Shown: one piece after another, positions 30,490 through 33,521 of the stretch
Layout of the letters: every line of letters begins with the position of its first letter
Position numbering within the stretch: position 1 is the first letter of the stretch
From: a virus
Lineage: Duplodnaviria; Caudoviricetes
Direction: 5' to 3' (one strand)
Length of the DNA stretch: 56,938 nucleotides
IMG/VR virus record: IMGVR_UViG_3300030107_001272
Location: 1-56,938 of that record
The notes under the pieces: generated by a model
What the model was told of the DNA's origin: nothing
Databases searched by the model: none
The model's input: only the letters and a program-made list of their open reading frames with translations
Program-made: the position numbers and the translations under genes

Positions 30490-30839
30490 TTTCTCGTACT
30501 TTCTATGCTGTTAATCTTGTGTTCAAGTGTATGAACAGCATGACGTAATCCATAGGTTATACTATCTGTCCACTTATCTTGTGTTATCTCTGGCTTCTCG
30601 TCAATGTACACTCTAATGTGGGTACAAGCCTCAATAGGCGCACCTTTTGACCAATAGGTATCAGGGTACTTAACCTTGTCAAGGTACTGCCCCTTGACCC
30701 TTATATTGTATCTGTGCTTGTTTAAGTATTTCTTCATCAGCCTTACCAACTGCTGTCCTTCTTCGTCATTAGGTATCTCACAGAATTGATAGCGTGAATT
30801 CTTTTGGTAGTGCTTATGCTTTTCTAAATTAGTTTTCAT
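30486..30839 (-). CDS. hypothetical protein
   Basis: 117-aa ORF with ATGA overlaps. Confidence 0.6.
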   Translation of the reverse strand: MKTNLEKHKHYQKNSRYQFCEIPNDEEGQQLVRLMKKYLNKHRYNIRVKGQYLDKVKYPDTYWSKGAPIEACTHIRVYIDEKPEITQDKWTDSITYGLRHAVHTLEHKINSIESTRK

Positions 30840-31828
30840 CTCTTTACTCCTTTCAATGCTTGGTATCCACAGCCACAGCCATCAAACAAACTCACGACAG
30901 TACCAAGTGACTGTTCAGGTATGCCATTGAGTATGTGCTTGATCACATCCACTGTCCATCCATTACCTATCATCTTGTATCGCCTTGAATTGCTGATCTG
31001 TTTGACCTGTTTATCAGGGAAGATACCTACCTTGGTATACCAATCGGGCATAGTCTGCAATCGTTCACACTCAAGAGGTGTCAATGCTCTCCAACGTAAG
31101 TCACCATCCTCAACCTTCGGCATGCGCCACCCACCTTGCATGGTGGTCAGGCCAGAGGACTTAGCCTTACGAGAGTAGACACGCTTGATGATGTCATAGC
31201 CTTTGAGGTTAGCTTCACCCACTTGTCTGCATTGAGTATGCTTGTTGAACACCACTTGTCTACGTGCTTTCTCAAAGTACATCTTCATAGATCCACCCTT
31301 AAAATAGTTAGCGTCTACACAGTAGGCTTTCTCTCTGTCGGTCATGCTCTCATCCTCAAGGATATCCTCAAGGTTGATACCAAGATCAGGCAGATCGTCA
31401 TGGGGTATGTTAGTCCAATACAAACGCTTACGATTCTGTGCAGATACAGACGCAGAGTTATGTACACGTGGCTCACATCCGAACTCACGTGAGAACACAT
31501 CCATATATTCCTTCTTCATAGGAGTTTCTTCAATGAGAAAGTACTTAGGTTTCCACTGGTGGAACAACCTAAAGAACTCTATTGTAGGCTTGGCTCTCTC
31601 GTCATTAAAGTTAAGCTGATTACCTGCAAAGGAGAATGGTTGACAAGGTGGGCCTGCCATTAGCAGGTCTATACCTTTGTGTACATACATAGGCTGTTTA
31701 AATACATTATTTCTAACGTGCCTGATACCAAGTACACTACCTATCTGCTTTACGTCAGGGTGATTGTAGTGAGCGACCCCCATAGCGTAGGGGTCTATCT
31801 CACTTGCGAATGCTTGTTGGTATTGCAT
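30836..31828 (-). CDS. DNA cytosine-C5 methyltransferase, circularly permuted
   Basis: ASEID (II), GPPCQPFS (IV), QNRKRLYW (VIII), LTPLECERLQ (IX), IGNG (X), then VVSLFDGCGCG (I) at the C-terminus. Confidence 0.88.
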   Translation of the reverse strand: MQYQQAFASEIDPYAMGVAHYNHPDVKQIGSVLGIRHVRNNVFKQPMYVHKGIDLLMAGPPCQPFSFAGNQLNFNDERAKPTIEFFRLFHQWKPKYFLIEETPMKKEYMDVFSREFGCEPRVHNSASVSAQNRKRLYWTNIPHDDLPDLGINLEDILEDESMTDREKAYCVDANYFKGGSMKMYFEKARRQVVFNKHTQCRQVGEANLKGYDIIKRVYSRKAKSSGLTTMQGGWRMPKVEDGDLRWRALTPLECERLQTMPDWYTKVGIFPDKQVKQISNSRRYKMIGNGWTVDVIKHILNGIPEQSLGTVVSLFDGCGCGYQALKGVKR

Positions 31829-32160
31829 TAGCCATTAGCCTTTCTCTTTTGTCCGACATCGGACTTTGTTACAGTGTAGCTACCCTTATCTACAGTAGCA
31901 CCCTTGCCGTACTTACGCACAATATGATCAGGGTGATTCTTCTGAATGAACTGTATCCTATAGACAATCCTATTGAATGGCTCATTCAAAGTGGAAGCAA
32001 TCTCTTTGATAGTACAATCTTGGTATACTTCCATTAGTATGCCATCAATAGTCGCATAGTTGTAGCTATAGTTCCTTGCTCGTTTCATGTGGAACGTGTG
32101 ATTGCTGTAGTCTACAATTTCTAGGGCAGGGTTATTTGCTGTGTTGATTTGCTGTGTCAT
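31828..32160 (-). CDS. putative helix-turn-helix DNA-binding protein
   Basis: TIKEIASTLNEPFNRIVYRI resembles an HTH. Confidence 0.5.
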   Translation of the reverse strand: MTQQINTANNPALEIVDYSNHTFHMKRARNYSYNYATIDGILMEVYQDCTIKEIASTLNEPFNRIVYRIQFIQKNHPDHIVRKYGKGATVDKGSYTVTKSDVGQKRKANG

Positions 32161-32415: not shown

Positions 32416-32535
32416 CTATCTCCTTCTCTTTGCAAGCGTGTCTATCTTAGCGACAAGCCAACCTGTTATAAAGCATGCATATCCAAATACACATGCCATG
32501 AAAAACCACATATAAATTTCAGGTATCTGTTCCAT
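32416..32535 (-). CDS. 39-aa membrane peptide (not in the ORF track)
   Basis: MEQIPEIYMWFFMACVFGYACFITGWLVAKIDTLAKRRR; TAATG coupling and RBS aaggag. Confidence 0.6.
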   Translation of the reverse strand: MEQIPEIYMWFFMACVFGYACFITGWLVAKIDTLAKRRR

Positions 32536-32681
32536 TACGCATATCTCCTTTTGTTTTTGCGTTCCTGTCTGTAGGCATTGCCATGCCTTGTCTTATCTCT
32601 GAGGTTAAGCTTCTTCTTCTGCTTGAACTTCTCAAAGTTCTTTACTTCGTAATGCGTTACGCTTCGCTTTCGCTCTGTCAT
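32535..32681 (-). CDS. 48-aa basic hypothetical protein (not in the ORF track)
   Basis: MTERKRSVTHYEVKNFEKFKQKKKLNLRDKTRHGNAYRQERKNKRRYA. Confidence 0.5.
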   Translation of the reverse strand: MTERKRSVTHYEVKNFEKFKQKKKLNLRDKTRHGNAYRQERKNKRRYA

Positions 32682-32787
32682 AGCTACCCTTTCCTTTCTT
32701 AGGTCTAACTGTTTGCATTGGTTTACGTAGCATCAGCATTGCCTTTGCTACAGGATTAACTCTTGTGATTGTAAGTTTCTTTTTCAT
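32632..32787 (-). CDS. ArfA-like small basic protein, 51 aa (not in the ORF track)
   Basis: MKKKLTITRVNPVAKAMLMLRKPMQTVRPKKGKGSYDRAKAKRNALRSKEL; TAATG-coupled to the upstream gene. Confidence 0.65.
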   Translation of the reverse strand: MKKKLTITRVNPVAKAMLMLRKPMQTVRPKKGKGSYDRAKAKRNALRSKEL

Positions 32788-33521
32788 TACGCTACCCACT
32801 TCTTTCCTGTGCCATGTGCAGGTATGAGTATGGACTTGGCATTGATCTTCATGCCACTACATAGCTTACACTTGTCACATGTAGTACGTCTACCTGCTTC
32901 CGCACTGGCAGGACATAGCACCTCTTTGTCTTTCACCATAGATGTAAGGTGGCCTACCCTAAAGGTACGTTCACCTTTTGCCCAAGCTACCTTGGCTTCT
33001 TCCACTGTGTCAGCACTACGCATGCACACAGTAGGATCGTAGTCAGCACCAACTGTATTAGCTTGGTGACTGTAAGCCGTATGTGCTTTAGCATGCTTGA
33101 TCCATAGCTTGTTATTTCTTTTAGGCACACAAGCAGGATCACCGTACATACCTAGACGTACAGTCCTATCCCTTGTCATCTCAACAAAGTCAACCGTCTT
33201 GATGCGAGGGTATTTACCTGCCTTGTATGCTTTGTACACACCTAGTATACTTAGCAACATGACATAACATCCACGTTCATCAGCCGTAGCCCGATCATCT
33301 CTGTCATGTGGCTTGCCACGTAAATGACACGTGCCACAGATAGAGTAGTCTTCACCACTCTTGTTGGCAGAGATAGGATCAATGTCACTACGTATGTATA
33401 GGATTTGGATCATGTTACCTGTCTTGCTATTGTTACTACCTGTTAGTGCTATAGCTACGATAGGCTTGCCATCAAGTAAGCTATCACCTTCGTATAGTAT
33501 ATATCCACTTGGCTTAGTCAT
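32787..33521 (-). CDS. Cys-rich protein, possibly Fe-S / radical-SAM-like (Gp88-like)
   Basis: SNNSKTG, ICGTC...CY, RLGMYGDP, TAYSH, CPA...CDKCKLC...HG. Confidence 0.5.
   Translation of the reverse strand: MTKPSGYILYEGDSLLDGKPIVAIALTGSNNSKTGNMIQILYIRSDIDPISANKSGEDYSICGTCHLRGKPHDRDDRATADERGCYVMLLSILGVYKAYKAGKYPRIKTVDFVEMTRDRTVRLGMYGDPACVPKRNNKLWIKHAKAHTAYSHQANTVGADYDPTVCMRSADTVEEAKVAWAKGERTFRVGHLTSMVKDKEVLCPASAEAGRRTTCDKCKLCSGMKINAKSILIPAHGTGKKWVA

Follow-up and report, generated by a model that had tools for sequence, protein, structure and literature searches.

A 51-codon reading frame on the minus strand of a marine phage genome is a real gene under purifying selection, and sequence comparisons indicate that its product is a divergent member of the ArfA family. 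ArfA, alternative ribosome-rescue factor A, is a bacterial backup factor that releases ribosomes trapped on damaged mRNAs. The window (the whole stretch of DNA that was analyzed, 56,938 nucleotides) is a complete IMG/VR record that encodes PolA, a DnaB-like helicase, RNR, TerL, an SU10-type portal, and a P22-type coat protein; no tRNA genes, tmRNA genes, or Rfam families were found in it. Because its PolA shares 66 to 67% identity with the PolA of Puniceispirillum phage HMO-2011 and of Roseobacter phages CRP-345 and CRP-1, the window phage is an HMO-2011-type podovirus. Its GC content is 38.6%, its nearest relatives among cultured phages have SAR116 and Roseobacter strains as hosts, and its own host is presumably a marine alphaproteobacterium. 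The gene, its parts, and the adjoining small genes are as follows.

32632 to 32787, minus strand: ArfA-like ORF (protein P0001), 51 codons plus a TGA stop, identified by ORF reading with profile and conservation evidence
32674 to 32757, minus strand: conserved core N11-R38, with NPVAKAML (predicted helix 12-20), an RKPMQTV mid-region, and the basic KKGKGSYDR motif
32668 to 32718, minus strand: stretch matched by PF03889 (profile positions 25 to 41 of 44), the counterpart of the ArfA mRNA-tunnel tail
32787 to 33521, minus strand: upstream 244-aa gene, DUF7227/GP88-like, phrog_2554, whose stop overlaps the ArfA-like start; adjoining in the 7 closest loci
32535 to 32681, minus strand: downstream 48-aa, very basic ORF in another frame, which covers the last 50 nt of the ArfA-like ORF
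32416 to 32535, minus strand: 39-aa hydrophobic ORF, whose start overlaps the stop of the 48-aa ORF (TAATG)

The minus-strand translation of 32632-32787 is MKKKLTITRVNPVAKAMLMLRKPMQTVRPKKGKGSYDRAKAKRNALRSKEL followed by a stop, with 17 K/R and 2 D/E among its 51 residues and a net charge of about +15. A preliminary description of this DNA had reported a 51-aa basic ORF coupled to the upstream gene and containing VRPKKGKGSYDR. Reading of the minus strand confirmed both points: the string is present in the ORF, and the ATG at 32787-32785 and the TAA of the 244-aa ORF have one base in common, giving TAATG. In four close relatives, the junction is an ATGA overlap instead, so coupling to the upstream gene is conserved while the exact junction varies. 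A GTG at 32799, 12 nt upstream of the ATG, would yield a 55-aa form and is the start chosen by some gene callers in relatives; the GTG is therefore a possible alternative start of the ArfA-like gene. Family searches gave no functional clue for the upstream 244-aa gene and no match for the 48-aa ORF. The latter contains HYEVKNFEKF (RYEMKNFIKF in its CRP-1 counterpart), ends in RQERKNKRRYA, and is kept in the seven closest loci.

Conservation of the ArfA-like ORF extends well beyond the window. Twenty close homologues were returned by a word-indexed search and 102 representative clusters by an exhaustive profile search (E ≤ 0.001), and of 72 viral loci confirmed in an IMG/VR scan, ORF extraction showed 69 to have an intact small ORF that ends at a stop of its own. 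Selection was measured on 35 loci, including the window, that share a gapless NP[VI]AKA-x13-KKGKGSYxR core and comprise 26 distinct sequences. Among these 26, the third codon position varied in all 28 core codons, the first position in 17, and the second in 14. The median pairwise dN/dS in frame was 0.18 (94 usable pairs), with dN somewhat lowered by the choice of loci, which were picked by a regular expression that fixes the core ends. One shifted frame gave a dN/dS of 1.75 (9 pairs), and the other gave no usable pairs. In the tail overlapped by the 48-aa ORF, third-position changes fit the frame of that ORF, and some changes (for example, GTA/GTC/GTG) are synonymous only there. The conserved NALRSKEL C-terminal end may be held by the overlapping 48-aa gene and not by its own function.

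The tight three-gene arrangement is restricted to the 7 closest loci, and 11 of 76 loci have a homologue of the upstream gene; the small gene thus shifts from one context to another. Two proteins join the ArfA-like N-terminal part to another frame. P0018, a single-member cluster from one 1.3-kb contig, continues in the frame of the 48-aa ORF, and P0008, a single-member metagenomic protein, continues in the third frame. Both fusions are probably indels or assembly errors. Programmed frameshifting into the 48-aa ORF, at which P0018 hinted, is the less likely reading; since that fusion is a single-member cluster on one 1.3-kb contig, an indel is likelier.

ArfA (PF03889) was the sole Pfam family matched by the window protein (hmmscan E of 7.6e-5), and the match covered residues 24 to 41 only, with a score of 22.5 bits that lies below the Pfam gathering cut-off of 25.5 bits for ArfA. 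When the whole 56.9-kb record was searched in six frames with the same model, a single site was found, the 32632-32787 ORF (E of 1.5e-5). The occurrence of one site in the record at this value, together with the E value for the protein, indicates that the match exceeds chance. PF03889 was matched by 20 of 21 close homologues at E ≤ 0.01 and by 62 of 100 family representatives at E ≤ 0.001 (best E of 1.6e-8); a precomputed table assigns it to 5 of 20 close homologues. DUF7230 (PF23876), a family of small phage peptides, was not matched by the window protein at E ≤ 1 and was matched by 4 of the 100 representatives. No NCBIfam match was found for the window protein, a result that is uninformative because E. 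coli ArfA also lacks one.

Profile-to-profile comparison extended the similarity past the tail. An hhalign comparison of the 100 representatives with 22 enterobacterial ArfA proteins (a narrow profile, as all 22 are at least 80% identical to E. coli ArfA) gave 93.3% and an E of 2.8e-7 over 36 columns, aligning residues 9 to 45 with ArfA residues 12 to 48 and taking in the ArfA N-terminal helix region. A MAFFT alignment of 14 diverse members gave a gapless core in which N11-R38 corresponds to E. coli ArfA N14-R41 by way of intermediates. The similarity is thus not confined to the Lys/Gly motif, and an ArfA-family match beyond low-complexity Lys/Gly sequence exists at the profile level with the direct Pfam score below its cut-off. 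BLASTP of the window protein against E. coli ArfA, which contains KKGKGSYMR, gave 10 of 23 identities with a gap. A phmmer search of PDB sequences with the single window protein gave no match; with the close-homologue profile, six chains appeared at E ≤ 10, all of them ArfA, with weak E values (0.12 to 0.48) and over the tail motif only. A Foldseek search of the PDB with the AF2 model placed an ArfA chain (5mdv_6) first of two rows, at a nonsignificant E of 6.4 and a TM score of 0.31.

In E. coli, ArfA's C terminus takes up the mRNA tunnel (PMC8012679). Residues 15 to 24 form a short helix, and the stretch Q27-E30 extends the RF2 sheet by a strand that takes shape only on RF2; F25 is responsible for an RF2-specific hydrophobic contact, and P23 packs on A1492/A1493 (PMC8012679, PMC5378476). 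The preliminary description had credited the KKGKGSY-x-R motif both with binding the empty mRNA channel and with helping to recruit RF2. The first role agrees with the published account, in which the motif itself binds the tunnel, but RF2 recruitment is there the work of Q27-E30 and F25 (PMC8012679). Forty-seven residues of E. coli ArfA are enough for function, and the protein is inactive once the basic residues beyond M40 are gone (PMC5378476). The window protein ends at the equivalent of ArfA residue 54 and, past the M40 equivalent, carries R38, K40, K42, R43, R47, and K49, so that at the sequence level the required basic tail is present.

The window protein resembles ArfA (YhdL) of E. coli and other Gamma- and Betaproteobacteria in being small and basic and in having KKGKGSYxR with further basic residues. 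Its core (N11-R38) is collinear with N14-R41, its predicted helix lies where E. coli ArfA has a helix, and it is about as long as the active truncated form of E. coli ArfA (PMC5378476). In the AF2 model of the free peptide, residues 12 to 20 are helical and 21 to 37 are coil, with a mean pLDDT of 84.1 (93 for residues 11 to 20). In contrast to E. coli ArfA, the window gene is phage-borne and its product lacks the hydrophobic C-terminal extension, has an N terminus unrelated over 13 residues, and carries L20 and K22 in place of P23 and F25. The F25 equivalent was K22 in both hhalign and MAFFT; the P23 equivalent was L20 in MAFFT or a gap in hhalign, and the A18 equivalent was K15 in MAFFT or A16 in hhalign. 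A complex prediction for the peptide with Swiss-Prot RF2_ROSDO scored 0.00, giving no answer either way.

Other rescue systems differ in makeup. ArfB has its own GGQ domain, SmpB has tmRNA as its partner, and BrfA has an unrelated sequence. A basic tail that probes the vacant mRNA channel is the principle common to the SmpB C-terminal tail, the ArfB tail, and B. subtilis BrfA (PMC8012679), but no sequence relationship between them and the window protein was detected.

Across the family, the most constant part is N-P-[VI]-A-K, and N11, P12, A14, K15, A16, L18, R21, Q25, V27, and K30 are invariant among close homologues. The position of F25 could be aligned without gaps in 74 of 100 representatives, where it is K/R in 47, hydrophobic in 20, and another residue in 7; in the same 74, the A18 position is K/R in 72. 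GxGS[YF] is absent from 39 of the 100 representatives.

The gene is also present in cultured phages. A profile search of five found it in four (HMO-2011, CRP-345, CRP-1, and HTVC027P), and the family profile did not find it in HTVC033P. A tblastn search with the 51-aa protein detected CRP-1 only, and megablast of the locus against the phage collection gave no match. The homologues located by the profile search in the three HMO-2011-type relatives are missing from the GenBank annotation of those phages:

CRP-1 (L001), 2033 to 2215: homologous ORF
CRP-345 (W03), 1937 to 2143: homologous ORF
HMO-2011 (W01), 1278 to 1472: homologous ORF

The tail motif is replaced by KKGNKRK in CRP-1 and CRP-345 and by DKTKYNRKK in HMO-2011. 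Because these close cultured relatives lack it, the GKGSY hallmark is dispensable in the family. In HTVC027P, the homologue is gp30 (family profile E of 6.3e-13, aligned in the core), which GenBank labels "hypothetical protein." Like the window gene, gp30 is phage-borne, but it reads TPKY (the P-x-Y form) and KKGRGSF, lies next to the gene for the small terminase subunit, and comes from a phage of another group, the HTVC023P type.

Cellular relatives were sought by scanning one genome per species for KKGKGSYxR. The scan gave at least 599 pattern matches, and 13 were confirmed by tblastn with the window protein. Among the matches listed, the 13 confirmed comprised 11 from Pelagibacteraceae (SAR11; genome contigs L084-L090, L092, and L094-L096), 1 from a Cellvibrionaceae metagenome-assembled genome (MAG), and 1 from a Rhodospirillaceae MAG. 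The SAR11 ORFs are mostly 38 to 42 aa long (an upstream start gives one of them a listed length of 52 aa), and they end at a stop of their own; L089, for example, encodes the 38-aa peptide MKKRNIIAKDLFSVKYKKRVVKPKKGKGSYNRKKFKKV. SAR11 peptides scored 28.1 and 32.3 bits, over the Pfam ArfA cut-off. The window protein and the L092 peptide, the one that scored 28.1 bits, share 16 of 33 residues (48%) without gaps (BLASTP E of 1e-8), in a phage-versus-cell comparison that offers about 30 alignable positions. This gapless identity, the hhalign result, and the PF03889 matches of 62 of 100 representatives support, as homology, the ArfA-like peptide that the preliminary description had proposed.

Among the matches listed, the SAR11 peptides are the closest cellular relatives. 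Like the window protein, they are short, end at their own stop, and, in the MAFFT alignment, have K at the A18 position. Unlike it, they have an aromatic residue at the F25 position, pass the Pfam cut-off, and lie among housekeeping genes (by sequence, a PfkB-type kinase, endonuclease III, and DapB); they also have no counterpart of the Pro in the phage NP motif, and their Asn is preceded by just about 4 residues. PF03889 was detected at E ≤ 0.001 in 96 of 151 sampled Pelagibacteraceae genomes (over the cut-off in 71 of 151) and, in a class-wide sample of 401 genomes, in 10, of which 8 exceeded the cut-off; many of the sampled genomes are incomplete. A nucleotide-HMM survey lists arfA in 0 of 2,376 Alphaproteobacteria (PMC11633108, Table 1). 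An ArfA-family frame of 35 to 50 codons in most sampled SAR11 genomes revises this published picture of Alphaproteobacteria without arfA.

Expression of the window gene is expected to differ from that of its E. coli counterpart. In E. coli, the mRNA from which arfA is expressed is truncated and has no stop codon, and trans-translation represses the gene (PMC8012679). In contrast, the window gene ends at its own TGA (codon 52), and its tail is overlapped by the conserved, coupled 48-aa ORF. No terminator-like site or arfA-like internal hairpin was found on the coding (minus) strand inside 32632-32787; the RNA fold of the region has a z score of -2.5 without a discrete 3′ hairpin. The own stop, the lack of an internal terminator, and the coupled overlapping gene suggest that the product should be made whenever the operon is expressed. 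With the lack of a hairpin and of a C-terminal extension, they also suggest that the gene is not linked to trans-translation. Small shares of the region are represented in three RNA-library runs, which come from two studies. The stretches 32698-32848 (4 differences over 151 positions) and 32774-32916, each spanning the junction with the upstream gene, are covered by contigs 90 to 97% alike, and parts including 32608-32695 have no cover. These contigs are sequences of relatives and DNA may occur in RNA libraries, so they give a weak hint of expression. HTVC027P gp30 was highly expressed at 3 h postinfection (hpi) and again at 12 to 15 hpi (PMC12753301).

As to function, we slightly favor, on the strength of the sequence comparisons, a constitutive rescue factor for non-stop ribosomes that would sense the empty mRNA tunnel and recruit a release factor. 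The gene would be transcribed within the small-gene block upstream of the replication module, and its translation would be coupled to that of the upstream gene. Since the frame ends at a stop codon of its own, the protein would be made constitutively and not only when trans-translation fails. Its basic tail (KKGKGSYDR plus five further K/R) would enter the empty mRNA tunnel of a ribosome that has stalled at a truncated mRNA's 3′ end. The N-terminal part, the NPVAKAML helix followed by RKPMQTV, would lie at the decoding center and recruit a host release factor, most likely RF2, which would then hydrolyze the peptidyl-tRNA. Ribosomes trapped on broken host or phage messages would in this way become available again for translation of phage messages, with no tmRNA tagging involved. 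That the phage counters mRNA- or tRNA-cleaving defenses by means of the ArfA-like peptide, as the preliminary description had suggested, is speculation.

A protein that binds the ribosome without rescuing it is an unlikely alternative to rescue. Such a protein would plug the tunnel or decoding center and so block tmRNA-SmpB, ArfB, or a host ArfA-like peptide, or it would hold RF2 inactive, in the service of host shut-off or counter-defense. ArfA(A18T) provides a precedent, since it binds ribosomes and recruits RF2 but fails to activate it (PMC8012679), so that a binding-only phenotype is possible. The window protein keeps the tail motif but has L20 and K22 at the P23 and F25 positions, and the near-universal K/R at the A18 equivalent among alignable representatives points the same way. 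However, K at the A18 position is also found in the chromosomal SAR11 members, which are presumably useful to the cell. In addition, NPVAKA is the most conserved part of the protein, which suggests a specific partner and not a simple plug, and the freeing of ribosomes is the more obvious benefit to a phage.

The majority subtype, to which the window gene belongs and in which the F25 and P23 equivalents are altered, could instead be a phage-specific ribosome effector that combines an ArfA tail with another outcome, a reading that we regard as doubtful. It would recruit a different factor, or it would block tmRNA tagging, a host ArfA-like peptide, or defense-triggered stalling, and it might work together with the overlapping 48-aa basic ORF. 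A role with another outcome is kept in play because the P23 and F25 equivalents are lost and GKGSY is dispensable in sister phages.

It is quite improbable that the product is a generic small basic nucleic-acid-binding protein (a DNA or RNA coat or regulator) whose likeness to ArfA arose by convergence. The high charge for so small a protein, the short and weak Pfam and PDB matches, the replacement of GKGSY by other basic strings in family members, and the extreme basicity of the overlapping downstream ORF are all compatible with such a protein. But the similarity runs over 36 profile columns, beyond the basic motif; the window protein aligns gaplessly with chromosomal ArfA-family peptides that pass the Pfam cut-off; and every PDB chain found with the close-homologue profile was ArfA. 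A chance ORF over the start region of a real downstream gene would be very short, unannotated in three cultured relatives, and overlapped in its 3′ third by a conserved ORF, as this one is, but the mostly synonymous change in the non-overlapped core and the intact frames in loci with differing neighbors and across the representative clusters make this explanation negligible.

ArfA annotation of phage genes is already known. In the 90% cluster to which the window protein belongs, two members carry the IMG name "stalled ribosome alternative rescue factor ArfA," HTVC027P gp30 was named ArfA from its Pfam domain (PMC12753301), and g10 of Citromicrobium phage vB_CbaS-RXM, likewise phage-borne, was named ArfA from annotation (PMC8953757). 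The words "rescue" and "ribosom(e)" do not occur in the main text of the papers on HMO-2011-type (PMC9038755) and HTVC023P-type (PMC9599517) phages, and no functional study of phage ArfA biochemistry was found among the titles, abstract openings, and passages of the literature considered. The find is a modest one: a phage-borne member of a known family that has diverged and is regulated differently, reached by an ordinary homology call of the kind that pipelines make.

Phages of the HMO-2011 and HTVC023P types rank among the most common in the ocean (PMC9038755, PMC9599517). If the peptides are active, abundant marine phages of Alphaproteobacteria carry an always-on ribosome-rescue factor, which would offer a handle on phage ribosome supply in small, ribosome-poor cells during destruction of host mRNA. 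The family also provides natural ArfA variants, free of non-stop regulation and in some cases lacking Phe25 or GKGSY, with which tunnel sensing can be dissected from release-factor activation.

Two further features were observed in the window. A 14-nt hairpin-forming word, GTCCGACATCGGAC, occurs in 5 exact copies within 2.8 kb of the block, at 31851, 33544, 33830, 34112, and 34579 (plus-strand coordinates); chance would give 0.07 matches, even if as many as 2 mismatches are tolerated. A T-rich run follows four of the copies on the plus strand, and some copies fall within ORFs and are translated there as KSD[IV]GQ. The repeat may be a regulatory or RNA-processing element. A 330-aa ORF at 30836-31828 (minus strand) contains a PPCQPFS motif and, by that motif alone, looks like a DNA cytosine-5 methyltransferase.
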